Under the pieces are notes generated by a model that worked only from the letters and a program-made list of their open reading frames with translations, had not been told where the DNA came from and made no database searches. Of a DNA stretch of 8,736 nucleotides, positions 1 to 8,736 are shown one piece after another (position 1 is the stretch's first letter; each line of letters starts with the position of its first letter). Made by a program: the position numbers and the translations under genes. Where the stretch lies: the IMG/VR virus record IMGVR_UViG_2579778784_000003. The stretch is one strand, 5' to 3'. The DNA comes from a virus. Its lineage: Duplodnaviria; Heunggongvirae; Uroviricota; Caudoviricetes.

Positions 1-639
1 TGCGGCCTCCCGCGCTTTTGTGGTGGCGACTCCGGCATTTTCAGCGGCTGACTCTGCATTACGGCGGGAAGCCTCTTCACTGTCTGCGGAGGCTTCTTCT
101 GACGCACGGGCATTTGTCTCTGAACGTTCTGCCGCTGTTGCTGCGTTTTGTGCGGCTGTTTTTGAAGAAGCTGCCGCTTTCGCGCTGTTACCTGCATTCG
201 TCTCTGATGTTTTCGCCGCATTCCTGGACGATGCCGCTGCTGTTTCTGATTTCTTTGCTGCCGCTGCGCTCTGAGAGGCGGCTTCAGCGTTGCGTGCCGC
301 TTCTTCCACCATTTCCTCAAAACGACGCAATGCCTCCGGCATGACATCATCTTCCGTCATGGCACCGAGAAAATCATTCAGCGTACCTGGTCTGGAACCT
401 TCATAGACGGTAATGGTCCCGGCATGTGAAGGCGGAAAACCTTCAACCAGCAGGGTGACGCTGTACTGTCCATACTCAACATCCATGCTGTAACGCCCGG
501 CTTCATCCGGATTTTCAGAGGCCACTGTGTTGACCAGTACCGTGGTGCTGTTACGCTTTGCCTTCAGTTGAATAGTGCAGTTCTGTATTGGTTTTCCCGC
601 ACCATCTTTCAGCACACCTGAGATTTTTACTGCTGCCAT
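1..639 (-). CDS. stf: Side tail fibre protein Stf, N-terminal 213 codons only (3' end lies beyond the window start)
   Basis: Not in the supplied ORF track because it has no stop in the window. Hand translation of the minus strand from the ATG at 639..637 gives MAAVKISGVLKDGAGKPIQNCTIQLKAKRNSTTVLVNTVASENPDEAGRYSMDVEYGQYSVTLLVEGFPPSHAGTITVYEGSRPGTLNDFLGAMTEDD..., then an Ala/Ser-rich repetitive segment (..SETNAGNSAKAAASSKTAAQNAAAAERSETNARASEEA..). It runs open to position 1 in frame. The N-terminus closely matches lambda Stf as I recall it. GGAG RBS-like motif at 648..645 (minus). Position directly downstream of lom matches lambda synteny. Confidence 0.85.
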   Translation of the reverse strand, partial: MAAVKISGVLKDGAGKPIQNCTIQLKAKRNSTTVLVNTVASENPDEAGRYSMDVEYGQYSVTLLVEGFPPSHAGTITVYEGSRPGTLNDFLGAMTEDDVMPEALRRFEEMVEEAARNAEAASQSAAAAKKSETAAASSRNAAKTSETNAGNSAKAAASSKTAAQNAATAAERSETNARASEEASADSEEASRRNAESAAENAGVATTKAREAA

Positions 640-650
640 ATCCACTCCAC

Positions 651-676
651 AAAAAAGCCCGCCTGAACCGGCGGGC
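651..676 (-). terminator. Putative intrinsic terminator downstream of lom
   Basis: Minus-strand RNA would read GCCCGCC-GGUUCA-GGCGGGC followed by UUUUUU (plus strand: A-run 651..656, stem arms 657..663 and 670..676). A 7-bp GC-rich stem followed by a U-tract, oriented for minus-strand transcription, 28 nt after the lom stop and 12 nt before the stf start. Confidence 0.5.
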
Positions 677-703
677 TGTCATAACACTGTGTTACCTGGC
701 TAA

Positions 704-1303
704 TCAGAATTTATAACCGACACCAACGATGAAACCGTCAGTGCGCCAGTCGCCACTGCCGGAACCTTCATAAGCAATATCAATGGCCACGGATTCGGTC
801 GGGTTAAACTGCACGCCAGCCCCCCATGCCAGAGACGTGTCGCTGTGGCGACCGTCATCACTTCCGGTCAGCACATCGTGCGTTTTCCCCTTGTTGTCAG
901 TTACGCGGAGATAATCCCCGGAGAACGTCGAAACACGGCTGTAAGCCACACCCGCCATCGCATAAGCACTGAACCATTCATTCACGCGTACAGACGGCCC
1001 CGCCATCACGCTGAACCAGCGGTTACGCACTGAATCTTCATGCCAGCGGGTATCGCTGTAATGCGTTTTTTGCTCATCTTTGGCATTGGCATAACTGAAT
1101 GACGTCACCAGCCCCAGCGTGTCCGTAAATTCATAACGGTATTTCACGTTAATGCCCTTCAGGTCATCACTGCCTGGCATATCAGTATGGGTCTGAAGAT
1201 ACCCGGCGCTTAGTGTGGACTGATGCTCTGCTGCGCTCGCTGGCGTACCAGCGGCAACCAGCCAGACTACTGCGGACAGAATAACAGCACATAATTTACG
1301 CAT
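704..1303 (-). CDS. lom: Lom-family outer membrane protein (Ail/Lom/OmpX 8-stranded beta-barrel family), prophage moron
   Basis: 199-aa ORF. N-terminal signal peptide MRKLCAVILSAVVWLVAAGTPASA with an AxA cleavage motif. C-terminal block IDIAYEGSGSGDWRTDGFIVGVGYKF matches the lambda Lom C-terminus as I recall it; terminal aromatic residue typical of OM beta-barrels. Location between J and stf is the canonical lom position. RBS-like GAGAGG upstream. Confidence 0.9.
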   Translation of the reverse strand: MRKLCAVILSAVVWLVAAGTPASAAEHQSTLSAGYLQTHTDMPGSDDLKGINVKYRYEFTDTLGLVTSFSYANAKDEQKTHYSDTRWHEDSVRNRWFSVMAGPSVRVNEWFSAYAMAGVAYSRVSTFSGDYLRVTDNKGKTHDVLTGSDDGRHSDTSLAWGAGVQFNPTESVAIDIAYEGSGSGDWRTDGFIVGVGYKF

Positions 1304-1325
1304 AATTACCTCTCGCTTTTCTGCA

Positions 1326-1351
1326 ATAAAAAAGGCGTCATTTCTGACGCC
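1326..1351 (-). terminator. Putative intrinsic terminator downstream of J
   Basis: Minus-strand RNA would read GGCGUCA-GAAA-UGACGCC followed by UUUUUUAU (plus-strand stem arms 1334..1340 and 1345..1351, A-run 1326..1333). It starts 20 nt after the J stop, with a GNRA-like tetraloop. Confidence 0.55.
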
Positions 1352-1370
1352 CGTATTGGGGTTATAAAAT

Positions 1371-4300
1371 TCAGCTGATACTGATACCAGCTGTAGATTT
1401 CTTCATCACAACAACAAGAAGGTCGCTGATACTGGTCGTTGGCGTCCAGTTATTAGCACCATATGAAGAAACATTGAAAGTCAGGGTGACATGGCCGTGT
1501 CCGGCAGGCATATCAATGACTGATGAAAATACCCTGCTGACATCCGTCGCGGGTTGCTGAAAGATTTCCTGTCCGTTCTTCAGCACCTGCAGCTTACAGG
1601 TTGAATACCAGTATGACTGTTGGTTGTTGCTGTTGAAGTTTTCATGCTTACCACCGCGAAACAGAACGGGGGGGATTACTATCTGACGGTCAAAAGCCTG
1701 GTCATCGTACACAGTGACCGTTATTGTACCGCTGGCATAACTGCCATTTCTCGGAAAGGCTTTTCCCACCGTTTTGACAATATCACCTTCAATCTGGTTG
1801 GCTGACAGTTTTCCCAGAATCCGACAGTTCTGATTAATCGTGACGTTGTTGAGCGTCCCGGAGTTCGCGTTCACGTTACCGCTGATATCCGCATTTTTCG
1901 CCGTCAGTCGCCCGTCAGGTGTCAGTGAAAACGTTGGGGGATTGCCACCGCTGGTAATGGTGGGAGCCGTCAGATATTTCAGGAACACTTCGTTCATGAA
2001 TATCTGATCGCCCTGCCCAACAAACATCGGCTTTGTGTTGCCATTCGCAGGATTAATCATCGCAATCCTGTCTGCCGCCAGCAGCACCTGACTCTGCATA
2101 CCGTCGGGGGTGTTCTCAATACCGGCACCGATACCCGCGATATAAAGGCGTCCGTCCTGCATCTGCTGCAGCTTCACAGCCCACATGCTGTTCAGGTTAT
2201 TATTTGTATCAACCTGAACCTTCTGTATCTGCTGGATCGCTGCACTCTGGTCTTCCAGTTTCTTATTGACGGTCTGCGTGATTTCATTGCTGACACCCGT
2301 AATGGATGTCCTGATTTCAGCCAGGTCAGGCGCAAGCTGACCGTTATCAATCTGCGTCCACAACTCCTGAGCCAGGTGTGTTTTTCCTATCTCTCCTTTG
2401 AAAAAATCCAGATAGCCGGATGCGTCATCACTCGGCTGACCGACAGCCTCCACGAATGTCGATTTGCCGACGGTGTTCACACTGCGAACGTAAAAATAAT
2501 AATCATGGCCCGGTTTGATATTGATACTGGCGGCTATCCAGTACAGCGCCGTGCCAAGATAGCGGGCTGTGGTTTCAACCTGCCTGATATCCGCAATCCG
2601 CTTTTCCGAGAACCAGAACTCAAACTGTACCGTCGGATCATAAACCGCAAGATGCGGCGTGGCGGTTATCTGAAAATAGCCCGGCGTCAGCTCAATCCGC
2701 GACGGCGCTGCCGGTGCGGCAATCCGGAACGATACCGATGCCGGATCGCCCTGCTGTCCCCACGCATTTACCGCCCGGACCGTCAGCGTGTAACGCCCCA
2801 GCGCCAGTTGCCTGAAGCGGTATGTGGTTTCCGTCGTCCGGGCCGTGCTGACCAGCCGCTCACTGCCGTCGTCCGCTGTTACGGTCAGGCGAAGCAGGAA
2901 GCTCACCCCCTTCACCACCTTCGGTGTGTCCCAGCGCGCCAGCACCTGGTATTCCCCGCTGTCTGCGGTGACTTCTGCGGTCAGGTGCTGCACCGCTGGC
3001 GGCGTGACACCGTTTACCGTTCCGCTCTGGTCGCCGTCAAAGTGCGCCCCGTTATCCACGATGGCCTCTTTTTCCGGTACATGCTGCACGGCGGTGATGG
3101 CATACGTGCCGTCGTCGTTCTCACGGATACTCACGCAGCGGAACAGGCGCTGGCGCAACGTCGGCAGCTTCAGCCCCCATACGCTGTATTCAGCAACGCC
3201 GTCAGGAACACGGCTCACTTTCACCTTCACGCCGTCGGTGACGGACTGAACCTCCACGCTGACCGGACTCCCCTGCCCGTCAACCAGACTTATCAGCGTG
3301 GTGCCGGAAGATGGCAGCGTGATTTCACGGTCGAGCGTCAGCGTCCGGGTCTGGCTGTTTACCGCCAGCACGCGCCCGCCGGTGCGGATACCGGCATAGT
3401 CATCATCGCAGATTTCAATGACATCGCCCGGTACATGGCGAAGCCCTTCGGCACCCACGCTGAAATCCACGGTCTGCGTTTCCAGCAGTTCTGTTTTAAT
3501 CAGCCACAGCCCGGCGCGGTGTGCCTGCCCCCGGCTGGTACAGCCAAAAGCATCCATCTTCGTGACGTTACGACCGTAACGGGCAATGGCCTGCGTATCC
3601 TCCACAAGCTCTGTCGCCGTCTCCCAGCCGTTGTTCGGGTCAATCCAGTTCACCTCAACGGCATTATGGCGGTCTTTCAGGGCGCTGAAGCTGTAGCGGA
3701 ACGGCGCGCCATCATCCGGCATCACCACATTACTGCGGTTATAGGTCCACACCTTATCCGACGGTCGGTCCTGCACGAACGTCAGCGTCTGCCCGTTCCA
3801 TACCGGCATACAGCGCATCGCCGAGCAGAAATCACTGAGCACATCCCACGCCTTGCGCTGTGTGGTCAGGTAAGCGTTACAGGTGATGCGCGGCTCCGTG
3901 CCGCCAAAGCCGTCCGGCACCGACTGGTCGCAATTCTGGCCGATGACATACAGCGCCCATTTATCCACATCCGCCGCACCAAGACGTTTCCCCATGCCGT
4001 AGCGCGGATGGGTCAGCATATCCCACAGACACCAGGCCATGTTGTTGCTGTATGCCGGTTTTAACGTTCCGTCCCAGATACCGCTGTATTGCCGCGTCTG
4101 CGGGTTATAGTTCGACGGCACCTGCAGAATGCGCCCGCGAAGATGATAATTACGGCTCACCTGCTGGCTGCCGAACTGCTCCGAGTCCACCTGCACGCCA
4201 ACCAGTGCCGTGTTCGGGTAGCACTGTTTCACATCGATGATTTCGGTGTATGACGACCAGAGCGTTTTGTTCTGCAACTGGTCTGTGGTGCTGTCCGGCG

Positions 4301-4853
4301 TCATCCTGCGCATCCGGATATTAAACGGGCGCGGCGGCAGGTTATCCACCACCACCGAGGCCAGATACTGCGAGGTGGTTTTGCCCTTAATGGTGATGTC
4401 TTTTTCCGTCACCCAGCCACCGTTACGCTGTATCTGAACCAGCAGGCGAACTTCCGACGGATTCCTGTCTCCCTTTGAGGTGGTTTCCACCAGTGCCTGT
4501 ACACCGAAGGTAAAGCGCAGACGGTCGATGTTTGCCGACGTGATGGTCCGGGTGATCGGCGTGTCATATTTCACTTCCGTACCCAGCACCGTCTCGGAGC
4601 CGGAGGATTCAAATCCCTCCGGCGGTGACTGCTCCTGCTCACCGGCCCGGAACACCACCGTGACGCCGGATATATTGGTATTCCCCTCACTGTCCAGCAC
4701 CGGCGTACTGTTCAGCAGCACGCTTTTTAACCCATCCACCGGACCTTCAACCGGCCCTTCGCTGATGGCATCGATCACACTCAGCAACTGCGTGGACTTC
4801 AGGTTGTCCTTCGCTTCGCGCGGGGTATGCCCCTTACTGCTGCCTTTACCCAT
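1371..4853 (-). CDS. J: Tail tip host-specificity protein J (central tail fibre)
   Basis: 1160-aa ORF. N-terminus [54 protein letters not shown] and C-terminus ..[39 protein letters not shown] both recognisably match lambda J (1132 aa in lambda, from memory). GGAG RBS at about 4866..4863 (minus). Follows I and precedes lom as in lambda. Confidence 0.95.
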
Positions 4854-4875
4854 TCGTCATGCTCCATAAACGACA

Positions 4876-4895
4876 AAACCGCCCGCAGGCGGTTT
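4876..4895. other. Perfect 8-bp stem / 4-nt loop hairpin in the I-J intergenic spacer
   Basis: AAACCGCC-cgca-GGCGGTTT read directly from the sequence. No convincing U-tract on the transcribed (minus) strand, so it is not called as a terminator. Lies about 20 nt upstream of the J RBS. Confidence 0.3.
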
Positions 4896-4913
4896 CACAT
4901 AAAACATTTTGCA

Positions 4914-5561
4914 TCAGCGACCAATCACCACAACCTGACCACCGTCACCTTCGTCTGCCGTGCTGATCTCCTGAGAAACCACCCGCGACCCCACACGCAT
5001 TTCACCGTACAGAACAGGCAGAACATTGCCCTGAGCAACCATGTTATCCAGTGAGGAGAAATAGGTGTTCTGTTTGCCGTTATCTGTACTGGCTGCCGTG
5101 GGCGTCCTGGCTTTCGGTGCCAGCATCTGGGCCACACCACCCAGAATCATACTGGCCCCTGCCGCATACATGCCCGATACAGCCGCAGCACCCAGCCAGC
5201 CCACAGGGTTCCACCATGCCACCGCAATCAGCGCCGCCCCCAGCACCACCTGAAACACACCGCCACTTTTAGCTCCCGCCATACGCGGCACGATGTGAAT
5301 CACGGCACCATTTTCCAGCGGCTCATTAAGACGGGCAGATAATTCATTTTCGCCTGCATCACGCCCGGCAATGCGCACCTGATACCAGCCCTCATTCAGT
5401 TTCTGGCGAAACGACGGAAGCTGCGTGGCCAGCGCCCGGATGGCTTCAGCCCCCGTTTTCACACGAAGGTCGATGCGGCGGCCAAATCGTTGTAAATCCC
5501 CGTAAAGGCAGATGCGTGCCATGCCCGGTGACGCCAGAGGGAGTGTGTGCGTCGCTGCCAT
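4914..5561 (-). CDS. I: Tail tip assembly protein I
   Basis: 215-aa ORF. N-terminus MAATHTLPLASPGMARICLYGDLQRFGRRIDLRVKTGAEAIRALATQLP and C-terminus KQNTYFSSLDNMVAQGNVLPVLYGEMRVGSRVVSQEISTADEGDGGQVVVIGR match lambda I as recalled. Central Gly/Ala-rich hydrophobic segment. The 103-nt overlap with the 3' end of K is the same arrangement as in lambda. Confidence 0.9.
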   Translation of the reverse strand: MAATHTLPLASPGMARICLYGDLQRFGRRIDLRVKTGAEAIRALATQLPSFRQKLNEGWYQVRIAGRDAGENELSARLNEPLENGAVIHIVPRMAGAKSGGVFQVVLGAALIAVAWWNPVGWLGAAAVSGMYAAGASMILGGVAQMLAPKARTPTAASTDNGKQNTYFSSLDNMVAQGNVLPVLYGEMRVGSRVVSQEISTADEGDGGQVVVIGR

Positions 5562-6202
5562 TTGTCGGTATACCTCTCTCGTTTGCTCAGTTGTTCAGGA
5601 ATATGGTGCAGCAGCTCGCCGTCACCACAGTAAATGGCGGCATGATTCGGCACCGATGAACCAAAACAGCACAGCAGCACATCGCCCGGCTGCGCCGCTG
5701 ACAACGGCACCTGATACAGCCCTGTGGCCTCCAGATTATCCAGATAGAGATTCTGACCGTGACGCCACCAGTCATCCCCGCGATGAAAATCCGGCATCTC
5801 AATCCCCGCCAGATGGTAAGCATCCCGGAACAGCGTGTAACAGTCCGTCACCCCGTGCTCAAAGCGCCGCCCGGTAAGATGCGGCACACAGCGGAATTTA
5901 TGAATCTCACCCCGGCAGACCAGCCACCACGGCAAATCACTCTGCACCTGCAGCCGCCGGTCAGCCTCACTCAGCCAGGGCAGACCACCGGGGTGGCTGT
6001 GGACCAGCGCCACAATCTCACCCTGCGTCTCTGCCCGCAGCCAGTCCTCCGGCGACATCCGGAAATACTCCTCCGGCTCACCGGAGATATTCACGCAGGG
6101 AAAATATCTTTCCCCTTCCGGCGTTCTCACCACGAAGCCGCACGACTCCGCTGGCGCACATCGCCGGGCGTGCGCCAGAATCGCTGATTCTGTCTGTGTC
6201 AT
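5459..6202 (-). CDS. K: Tail tip assembly protein K (N-terminal MPN/JAMM-like domain plus C-terminal NlpC/P60-like domain)
   Basis: 247-aa ORF starting MTQTESAILAHARRCAPAESCGFVV. It contains HSHPGGLPWLSEAD, which fits the JAMM signature HxHx7Sx2D, and a downstream Cys (GVTDCYTLF) and His (NHAAIYCGDGELLHH) consistent with an NlpC/P60 papain-like fold. Start lies 5 nt after the L stop. An internal ATG at 6058..6056 (Met49) would give a 199-aa product, which I believe corresponds to the classical lambda K annotation. Confidence 0.88.
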   Translation of the reverse strand: MTQTESAILAHARRCAPAESCGFVVRTPEGERYFPCVNISGEPEEYFRMSPEDWLRAETQGEIVALVHSHPGGLPWLSEADRRLQVQSDLPWWLVCRGEIHKFRCVPHLTGRRFEHGVTDCYTLFRDAYHLAGIEMPDFHRGDDWWRHGQNLYLDNLEATGLYQVPLSAAQPGDVLLCCFGSSVPNHAAIYCGDGELLHHIPEQLSKRERYTDKWQRRTHSLWRHRAWHASAFTGIYNDLAAASTFV

Positions 6203-6207
6203 GGGAT

Positions 6208-6906
6208 TTACTGCGAAAGTTTGTTAATGGAAAGGAAGCCGCCAAAGTTGCTGACATTATTGCGGAACTTACAGCCACTCAGGCATTTGCTGCATTTATC
6301 CTTCGTGATATCGGACGTCGGCTGGTCATATTCATCCGCGACAGCCGGACCGTGATAACCACACTCATCGCCGCGATAGGTCCAGGTGCAGGTGTTGGCC
6401 AGCATGATACGCCCCGGAAAAACAGCACCATCCGTTTCCGTCGGTGTGGACAACACAAAGGAGGCACTGACCGCACTCAGTTCGCTGCACTGCTCGATGC
6501 GCCAGCGGCTGATCACCTCCTGCTCCGGATCGGCGTCGCTGTTTCCGTTGACGAAGTTCACCGCATCCAGAAAACGGGCGTAAACCTTACGCCGGACCAC
6601 CGTTCCTCCGACCAGACTCTGCAGGTCTTCCGCCATCCCGGTGACCATGCCGTGCAGGTTAGAAACCGTCAGTGTCGGACGGGCAGCACTGCCCTTGCCG
6701 TTCAGTTCAAATCCCGTCCCCTGAATGGGATACGCCTGATACTGTCGCCCCTGCCAGGTGACCGGCTCACCTTTTTCGTTCTGCTCATTACAGAAAAAAT
6801 AACGTTCTCCACCGACCACTGTCAGATCGATTTCCCAGAGCACCACCTGGGCTGACTGAGTGAGGCGTGTCGTCTCATGATGTGTTTCCTGTGGAATATC
6901 CTGCAT
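6208..6906 (-). CDS. L: Tail tip protein L
   Basis: 232-aa ORF, the same length as lambda L. N-terminus MQDIPQETHHETTRLTQSAQVVLWEIDLT and a C-terminal Cys-rich segment (..CTWTYRGDECGYHG..CSKCLSGCKF..) match lambda L as recalled. AGGAG RBS at about 6915..6911 (minus). Confidence 0.9.
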   Translation of the reverse strand: MQDIPQETHHETTRLTQSAQVVLWEIDLTVVGGERYFFCNEQNEKGEPVTWQGRQYQAYPIQGTGFELNGKGSAARPTLTVSNLHGMVTGMAEDLQSLVGGTVVRRKVYARFLDAVNFVNGNSDADPEQEVISRWRIEQCSELSAVSASFVLSTPTETDGAVFPGRIMLANTCTWTYRGDECGYHGPAVADEYDQPTSDITKDKCSKCLSGCKFRNNVSNFGGFLSINKLSQ

Positions 6907-6915
6907 CAGAGACTC

Positions 6916-7386
6916 CTATGCCACGACCTGTTCAAAATCTGCCGTTATGGTTACCCACAACGCCCCCACGCTTACCGACCATTTACGACAAACCACCCTG
7001 ATCGGCTTCCAGTCATAAGGTGGCGTCCACTGAAATGCGCGGACGCCACCGTGCCGTTCCAGAAAGGCTTTTAAAGATGGGTGTTCACATTTACGAACAC
7101 GTATCGTCACGCTGTAAGTCGACAACTGGTTATTCAGTCCCGCCGCACGACGCTGTTCATAACCATCGCCCAGCTTCACTGTCACCACACCGTGCCGTTC
7201 CAGAAAGGCTTTTAAAGATGGGTGTTCACATTTACGAACACGTATCGTCACGCTGTAAGTCGACAACTGGTTATTCAGTCCCGCCGCACGACGCTGTTCA
7301 TAACCATCGCCCAGCTTCACTGTCACCACTTTCGGCTCTGATACCACATTCATATCCGGGCGCACTTTCCAGTGAAACGTCTCCAT
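6916..7386 (-). CDS. M: Tail tip protein M carrying an internal 47-aa in-frame tandem duplication
   Basis: 156-aa ORF. N-terminus METFHWKVRPDMNVVSEPKVV and C-terminus FQWTPPYDWKPIRVVCRKWS..FEQVVA resemble lambda M (about 109 aa). The block VVTVKLGDGYEQRRAAGLNNQLSTYSVTIRVRKCEHPSLKAFLERHG occurs twice in direct succession. The start ATG (7386..7384) overlaps the H stop TAA (7388..7386) by 1 nt. Confidence 0.85.
   Translation of the reverse strand: METFHWKVRPDMNVVSEPKVVTVKLGDGYEQRRAAGLNNQLSTYSVTIRVRKCEHPSLKAFLERHGVVTVKLGDGYEQRRAAGLNNQLSTYSVTIRVRKCEHPSLKAFLERHGGVRAFQWTPPYDWKPIRVVCRKWSVSVGALWVTITADFEQVVA
7047..7329. repeat. Perfect direct tandem duplication, 2 x 141 bp, inside M
   Basis: Base-by-base comparison of 7047..7187 with 7188..7328 found no mismatches. 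Identity also extends one base to 7329, and it breaks at 7046 vs 7187 and at 7189 vs 7330. The period of 141 bp equals 47 codons, so the frame is preserved. Confidence 0.9.
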
Positions 7387-8735
7387 TACCGATATGCTCC
7401 ACTTAACCGACCACCATCACGGGCCTGCTGTTGCATAAAGTCCGCTGCCGCTTTTTTCCCAAGGTCATAAACCACCTTCAGGGCAGCCGGACCTATCTGC
7501 CCGTTCGTGCCATCGTTATTGATCTCGATGTTGTACTGCGGGGCAAACATCGCCATACCTGAACCACCAATGTCCGCCACAACCCCCAGCTTACCGTCAG
7601 CACCACGACGCAGTGGCAGAATGGCTTCAGGTCCAGCTTCCCCCATCACACCCGCGCCTTTTGCAAAAGCAAAAAACGTCGGACGGTTAACCACCGTGCC
7701 ACTGTAACGACTCAAATCAGCAGACTGATAAATCCCCCCATTGGCATTCAGGGAAAGGCTGCTGAGATCAAATCCCAGTACACTGCCAATCCCTTTTATC
7801 GATTTCATCACGGTTGCCTGCGCCAGGATCTTCGCCATATCTGACAGCACCGAAGAGGTGAAGGATTTGAAGTTGAGTTTGCCGGTAGTGACAAAAGTTG
7901 CCAGGCCATTTCCCATGTTGCTGAAGGCTGACGAGAACACCTGTTCTGCTGTTCCTGCCGTATTGTCTGCATCCACGGTAAAATCCTGAAATGCACGCAG
8001 GACTCCGTTTTTCCAGTTACCCTGCACAACTTCAAGCTGTTGCCAGTAACGGCGATTCTCATTCAGTTGTCGGTTCAGGCTCTCCGTCAGCGCCTGCTCG
8101 GACTTTCTGTAGTCATCCGTGTTATATGTCCCTTTCTGCTCACTATCCCGCCTCAACTGCTCCAGCTGTTGCTGGTATTTCTGGCGAAGACTCAGTTGTA
8201 CCTGATATCGCTGCCGCTGCTGATCACCCATACCCACCGTGGCGATATCCAGGTCATGTTGCTGACGCTGAGCGCGCTCTTCTTCAGCCAGTTGACTGGT
8301 CAGCTGAATTGTTTTTTTCTTCAGCTCGTTGAGTGCCGTCTGTTTCTGAAGCTCCTGCTGTTTTACATCCAGCAGCGTCAGTGCCTGAATCAGTTCATCT
8401 TTACGGGCCAGCACACTCTTTTCATCTGCCGTCAGTTTTTTCCCGTCCAGGTCGCTGATGCGCTGCTGCAGAGCCAGAAGCTGTTTATGCGCTTCTGTCA
8501 TCCTTTCCGTGGCAATGCCTGCTGACTGTCTGGCAGCAGCAATCTGTCCTTCCACCTGTGCCTGTTGCTGACTGTACTGCAGCAATAACCGGGTGGCCTC
8601 ATCATTACGGGTTTCGCGTGTTTTTTTCTTACCGGATGCCAGGGCTTTCTCGTAACGTTCATTTTCACGTTGTATCGCCGCATCCCTGACAGCCTGATCG
8701 GCGTACTGCATGGCATTAATACGCGCAATTTCACG
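7386..8735 (-). CDS. H: Tail tape measure protein H, C-terminal portion (5' end lies beyond the window end)
   Basis: The ORF track gives 441 aa from an internal Met at 8711, but the frame stays open to the window edge (hand-translated upstream codons give ..REIARINA-MQYADQ.. with no stop), so the true start is outside the window. Gln/Glu/Leu-rich coiled-coil-like stretch followed by a Gly/Ser-rich C-terminal region, typical of tape measure proteins. Position immediately upstream of M with a 1-nt stop/start overlap matches lambda H-M. Confidence 0.88.
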   Translation of the reverse strand, partial: REIARINAMQYADQAVRDAAIQRENERYEKALASGKKKTRETRNDEATRLLLQYSQQQAQVEGQIAAARQSAGIATERMTEAHKQLLALQQRISDLDGKKLTADEKSVLARKDELIQALTLLDVKQQELQKQTALNELKKKTIQLTSQLAEEERAQRQQHDLDIATVGMGDQQRQRYQVQLSLRQKYQQQLEQLRRDSEQKGTYNTDDYRKSEQALTESLNRQLNENRRYWQQLEVVQGNWKNGVLRAFQDFTVDADNTAGTAEQVFSSAFSNMGNGLATFVTTGKLNFKSFTSSVLSDMAKILAQATVMKSIKGIGSVLGFDLSSLSLNANGGIYQSADLSRYSGTVVNRPTFFAFAKGAGVMGEAGPEAILPLRRGADGKLGVVADIGGSGMAMFAPQYNIEINNDGTNGQIGPAALKVVYDLGKKAAADFMQQQARDGGRLSGAYR

Positions 8736-8736
8736 C

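Follow-up and report, generated by a model that had tools for sequence, protein, structure and literature searches.

A perfect in-frame tandem repeat in tail tip gene M of an E. coli prophage contig is most probably an unmerged contig overlap

Genes of the contig and identity of gene M

The stretch of DNA analysed here, called the window throughout, is the entire 8,736-bp contig JJNT01000064.1 (L001) of the draft E. coli assembly GCA_000696545.1. It carries a series of tail genes: the tape-measure gene H, which is cut by the contig end, then M, L, K, I, J, Lom and the N-terminus of a side tail fibre gene. M is annotated on the minus strand at 6916..7386 as an ORF of 156 aa (KDO87619.1 / WP_032165714.1), where we infer a true gene of 330 nt encoding 109 aa. 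The annotated ORF matches the Pfam family PF05939 (Phage_min_tail) with 183.7 bits for a cut-off of 39 (E = 1.2e-54), and the match falls in two stretches, owing to the repeat described below. Once the repeat is merged, the 109-aa protein aligns with the lambda gpM chain 8iyk_M, residues 1-108 to residues 1-108 (E = 3e-36). Pfam matches of the neighbouring ORFs, together with the gene calls, place M between H on one side and L, K, I and J on the other; the neighbouring tail genes are all intact ORFs, and the gene order around M is identical in the annotated prophage of Combat2C1. Both protein matches and the H-M-L-K-I-J synteny support the assignment to tail tip gene M made in a preliminary description of this DNA.

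The distal tail protein of lambda is gpM, whose 109 residues, all of them ordered, form a beta-sandwich together with an E-loop and a flanking helix; a ring of six copies connects the tail tube to the tip (PMC10721106). In a listing of 120 homologues from a collection of 5.8 billion proteins, the full-length proteins nearly all have 109-110 aa, and a few have 111-113 aa. The 156-aa annotated ORF departs from this length and the merged gene, with 109 aa, agrees with it: the departure is a fault of the record, not of the gene. The corrected M is indistinguishable from hundreds of E. coli prophage M genes, and is an ordinary lambda-type M.

We also inspected longer M homologues, of 130-260 aa, and found no internal duplication among them. 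They are H-M or Z-M fusions, proteins with frameshifted tails or alternative starts and, in one case, the product of an unrelated 84-bp insertion. This AT-rich insertion, in a homologue of 137 aa (P0033), follows M nucleotide 196, two bases from the polymorphic site discussed below, and has a direct repeat of about 14 bases (CTGGAACGGCACG...) at its flanks. The gene lies on a 1.2-kb metagenome contig (ENA ERZ773486 NODE_46350, L085 463-876) with a coverage of 2.7 and, given this very low coverage, the insertion may be either a chimeric path or a small insertion.

AlphaFold2 modelling of the 156-aa ORF gave confident predictions for residues 1-15 and about 87-156, and a pLDDT below 50 for residues 16-86. 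As the alignment of homologues covers one copy only, this result is weak and uninformative on the reality of the repeat.

Several features of the contig outside M were also recorded. J occupies 1371-4853 on the minus strand, and encloses a 562-aa antisense ORF on the plus strand (2376-4064) that bears no sign of coding. As called, the ORFs of K (247 aa, JAB and NlpC/P60) and I (215 aa) overlap by 103 bases (5459-5561); the overlap is annotated likewise in complete genomes, for example Combat2C1 and JE86-ST05, and is therefore a conserved feature of the calls rather than a peculiarity of this contig. An Ail/Lom outer-membrane gene (lom ORF 704-1303, minus strand) lies between J and the side tail fibre gene. 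It is missing in the Combat2C1 prophage, which is otherwise a close match (the alignment there passes from window position 656 straight to 1325, without 657-1324), and looks like a cargo gene, or moron, subject to presence or absence. Most differences from the nearest complete genome fall within 3500-5500, in J, I and K.

A 141-bp repeat in the window and a single N in the public record

Tandem Repeats Finder reports a repeat of period 141 at 7047..7329 of the window, with 2.0 copies, 100% matches, 0 indels and a score of 566. A direct comparison of the letters at 7047..7187 with those at 7188..7328 gives 0 mismatches, and identity at period 141 extends over 283 bases, one base ('C') more than two units, which corresponds to a microhomology of 1 base (1-2 bases had been proposed at first). 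A chance origin of this string is far too improbable to be considered. The perfect, in-frame 141-bp tandem duplication that the preliminary description had placed at 7047-7329 is thus present in the window, and its effect on the annotated protein is as had been described: residues 20-66 of ORF 6916..7386 recur as residues 67-113, and these 47 repeated residues bring M from about 109 to 156 aa. An antisense ORF on the plus strand (7020..7406), which had been attributed to the same repeat, is indeed lengthened by it, from 81 to 128 aa, and shows no sign of coding.

The public record differs from the window at one position only. Position 7189 (L001 1548) is 'N' in the record and 'A' in the window. 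This N, which could be a literal N or another ambiguity code displayed in that way, is the sole ambiguous base among the 8,736. It occupies the second place in copy 2, two bases beyond the junction of the copies; the chance that it would fall within 2 bases of the junction is about 5/8736. The 'perfect' identity at 7189 arises from an N that was turned into a letter in the window. The claim that both copies are identical at every base therefore holds for the window, where the mismatch that would have spoken against the repeat is not found, and does not hold for the deposited record, where 7189 is N. Since the window shows 'A' at this position, the N was not visible when the preliminary description was made.

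The position of the N matters for the evidence that the record can carry. After a C at 7188 that both versions share, 7189 is the first base at which a duplication junction (A) would depart from the gene as it normally continues (T), the duplication-junction string being ...GTCACCAC-A-CCGTGCC.... A genuine duplication should have its junction-specific bases called, and in the public record 7189 is N; because this sole informative base is uncalled, the deposit is devoid of junction-specific evidence. We considered whether the N could be a mixed call caused by misplaced reads from the flanks, and rejected this as the main reading: reads of this kind should bring conflicts at 7190, 7191, 7192 and the bases beyond as well, and these are all called.

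Overlap of the two pieces on either side of the N

Splitting the contig at the N gave piece A (1..7188) and piece B (7190..8736), which we read as the left-hand and the right-hand contigs of the assembler, with 7189 as a one-base gap placeholder between them. The suffix of A equals the prefix of B over exactly 140 bases, and no other length from 2 to 999 gives a match. The overlap occurs a first time at 7049..7188, where it ends piece A, and a second time at 7190..7329, where it starts piece B. Its length plus the N makes the period of 141, and 140 is k-1 for the odd value k = 141.

Once A and B are merged through the overlap, a sequence of 8,595 bp results, in which M encodes 109 aa. From its position 5781 to its end, and hence across the join, this sequence shows 100% identity with the Combat2C1 chromosome, a complete E. 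coli genome. BLAST aligns 7188..8736 of the window with Combat2C1 at 100.000% over 1,549 bases, and the alignment also breaks at 7188. In 23 listed complete genomes, window 6850..7500 is matched at 100% as a 510-base, single-copy locus. The locus displays three signs of a scaffold join, namely an ambiguous base at the join, an exact suffix/prefix overlap and a canonical sequence on merging. That A and B derive from different prophage lineages, and that the join is a mosaic boundary, was rejected, the merged sequence being 100% identical to a single complete genome across the join.

A polymorphic site just before the overlap

The base that precedes the first occurrence of the overlap, 7048, is position 141 counted from the end of A. 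On the minus strand it is nucleotide 198 of M, in the wobble position of codon GGT for Gly66. In a set of 81 closely related M genes, this site, one of only 16 that are polymorphic, has T in 79 and C in 2. Five complete E. coli genomes have the alternative allele (G on the plus strand) directly before an exact copy of the 140-mer. JE86-ST05 has both alleles, in two prophages that differ at exactly the base equivalent to 7048; from there on they agree over the whole 140-mer and over a further 517 bases, which extend into H. A graph of JE86-ST05 built with k = 141 would break exactly at the point where A and B meet, with one contig ending at the equivalent of 7188 and the next starting at that of 7049. 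The difference at 7048 between two prophages is thus seen in other strains, and by analogy a second allele would be present in the source genome; piece B would then probably be the sequence common to two prophages of that genome.

Both this branching and the concatenation of overlapping contigs have precedents: a SNP at 'position k' is a signature of de Bruijn contig ends, and scaffolders concatenate overlapping contigs, sometimes with gaps inserted between them (PMC5368935). Repeated templates are abundant in the species, with homologous tail regions in 5,010 of the 5,426 complete E. coli genomes (median 2, up to 15 per genome). Because such regions recur within a genome, short-read contigs break in the tail region, and the presence of several of them also explains why the contig studied here is short and bounded inside H and inside the tail fibre gene.

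Search for the junction in other sequences

A 60-base probe spanning the junction found no match in the 5,426 complete E. coli genomes, and among 50,697 phage records it gave only single-copy matches in two pieces. A 50-base junction was not found in IMG/VR, in the JGI metagenome contigs or in the GTDB species representatives. The exact 156-aa protein is recorded on contig JJNT01000064.1 only. An independent occurrence, which would argue for a genuine duplication, was thus absent from the five collections and from the records of the exact protein. Sister prophages were also looked for by way of the exact 1160-aa J protein, which is on no other contig of the assembly collection.

Discussion

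We estimate at about 90% the probability that the repeat arose as an artefact of scaffolding, when two contigs overlapping by 140 bases were joined through one N instead of being merged, and is not a feature of the genome. The preliminary description had proposed either a very recent duplication or an assembly artefact. The second branch of this alternative is favoured by the N, by the 140-base overlap, by the SNP and by a junction that is unique to this record, and we found nothing in favour of the biological one.

The following scenario would account for the deposited sequence. A de Bruijn-graph assembler, run at k = 141 as we infer, would have produced two contigs. The first would run for 140 bases beyond a position at which two lambdoid prophages of the strain differ, and the second, corresponding to the sequence common to both prophages, would start right after that position. 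Neighbouring contigs of such a graph overlap by k-1 bases, here 140. The scaffolding step would then have put them in the right order, left the overlap unmerged and written a single 'N' between them. At submission, a lone N would not count as a gap, and it may therefore have been kept inside the deposited contig as an ordinary ambiguous base, without splitting the contig. The 140 + 1 bases would afterwards be read as 141-base 'tandem copies', and because the period happens to be a multiple of three, gene callers gave an uninterrupted M of 156 aa. Finally, the conversion of N to 'A' in downstream processing would have made the repeat look perfect in the window.

Directly observed in favour of this scenario are the N, the 140-base overlap, the canonical M that merging produces, the failure to find the junction elsewhere and the existence of real genomes with the required arrangement of the SNP. 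The type of assembler, the value of k and the second prophage carrying the other allele in the source genome are deduced from these observations. The scenario makes predictions for the raw reads: none should contain ...TGTCACCACACCGTGCCG..., coverage should be even on the merged version, an A/G mixture should be seen at the site equivalent to 7048, and depth should be approximately doubled over 7190..8736. Against it, a k of 141 is large for the short-read assemblers of 2014, and needs, for example, 2x250 reads and a build that permits it. Moreover, the identical string would result from a genuine duplication whose junction happened to carry an unrelated base of low quality.

The latter possibility deserves attention as the first alternative: M of one prophage would have undergone a genuine and very recent in-frame duplication of 141 bp, by illegitimate recombination or slippage at the 1-base microhomology, and the N would be an unrelated weak call. 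The perfect, in-frame repeat of 2.0 copies in the window and the intact ORFs of all neighbouring tail genes speak for this reading, and in principle a real duplication would also branch the graph at the same 140-mer if k was 141. We nevertheless consider it very unlikely. It requires that the N at the junction and the even overlap of 140 bases both be coincidences, and it does not predict an overlap that starts just after a SNP distinguishing prophages. The only base that could reveal it, A instead of T, is uncalled in the record; the junction, marked by CACCACACCGTG in the context of 7000..7400, has no second occurrence in any collection searched, and the length of the family is essentially fixed at 109-110 aa. 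The low pLDDT (<50) of residues 16-86 points in the same direction, weakly, the alignment being on one copy only.

Were this duplication real, the doubled residues 20-66 would, going by the description of lambda gpM, cover part of the beta-sandwich together with its E-loop and the flanking helix. Either the hexameric distal-tail ring would probably be disturbed, or the duplication would be tolerated only in a defective prophage. The event would be days to years old. It would catch domain accretion, or else inactivation, in a rare natural instance, within a siphophage tail-tip ring protein whose length is tightly constrained.

A different assembly error with the same outcome, in which an overlap-layout or reference-guided pipeline, or a gap closer, concatenated contigs overlapping by about 140-141 bases and in which the N is a true mixed A/G call reflecting a SNP between collapsed prophage copies, is in keeping with the homology of 7189 to M nucleotide 198, a real T/C polymorphism (A/G on the plus strand), and with the frequency of repeated prophage tail regions in E. 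coli genomes, but it needs an overlap of 141 (an even k of 142, or contigs overlapping by k), leaves unexplained why 7189 is ambiguous and 7048 called, and strikes us as scarcely credible. Its practical upshot is unchanged, in that the duplication is not real.

If the repeat is an unmerged overlap, it has no biological significance, and the value of the case is practical, as one of data quality. A join of one N passed submission as part of a contig and, the period being in frame, resulted in a 156-aa 'phage tail protein'. This M has entered GenBank, RefSeq and UniRef, as KDO87619.1, WP_032165714.1 and UniRef100_UPI00049F2BC1 (which lists 9 members). In scans of draft assemblies for recent duplications, repeat junctions should be inspected for ambiguous bases, and overlaps for a length of k-1. 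The replacement of ambiguous bases by a fixed letter, as at 7189, can make false perfect repeats or hide joins elsewhere.

In a clustering at 90%, the 156-aa protein belongs to a cluster of 115, whose listed members are mostly fragments of M at contig ends (26-90 aa). This composition indicates that draft assemblies often break within M.

How does this locus compare with known systems? Engineered in-frame duplications in the lambda tape-measure gene H lengthen the tail, as has been verified experimentally. The repeat in M resembles these duplications of lambda tail genes in being an in-frame, internal repeat of a tail gene. The two proteins differ, however, H being extended and tolerant to changes in length. 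M forms compact ring subunits of 109 residues, every one of them ordered (PMC10721106). Compared with lambda gpM itself (PF05939; 8IYK chain M), the merged 109-aa gene is alike in its alignment over residues 1-108 and in its setting between H and L-K-I-J, and the annotated ORF differs by its 156 aa, which are due to the join.

The closest counterpart is found in the unmerged overlaps of de Bruijn contigs (PMC5368935), with which the locus shares a 140-base overlap, a lone N and a canonical sequence on merging; the site at position 141, polymorphic in other genomes, would be its distinguishing SNP. It departs from them in that the join is hidden inside a deposited 'contig', and in that the period is in frame, hence a protein that looks plausible.
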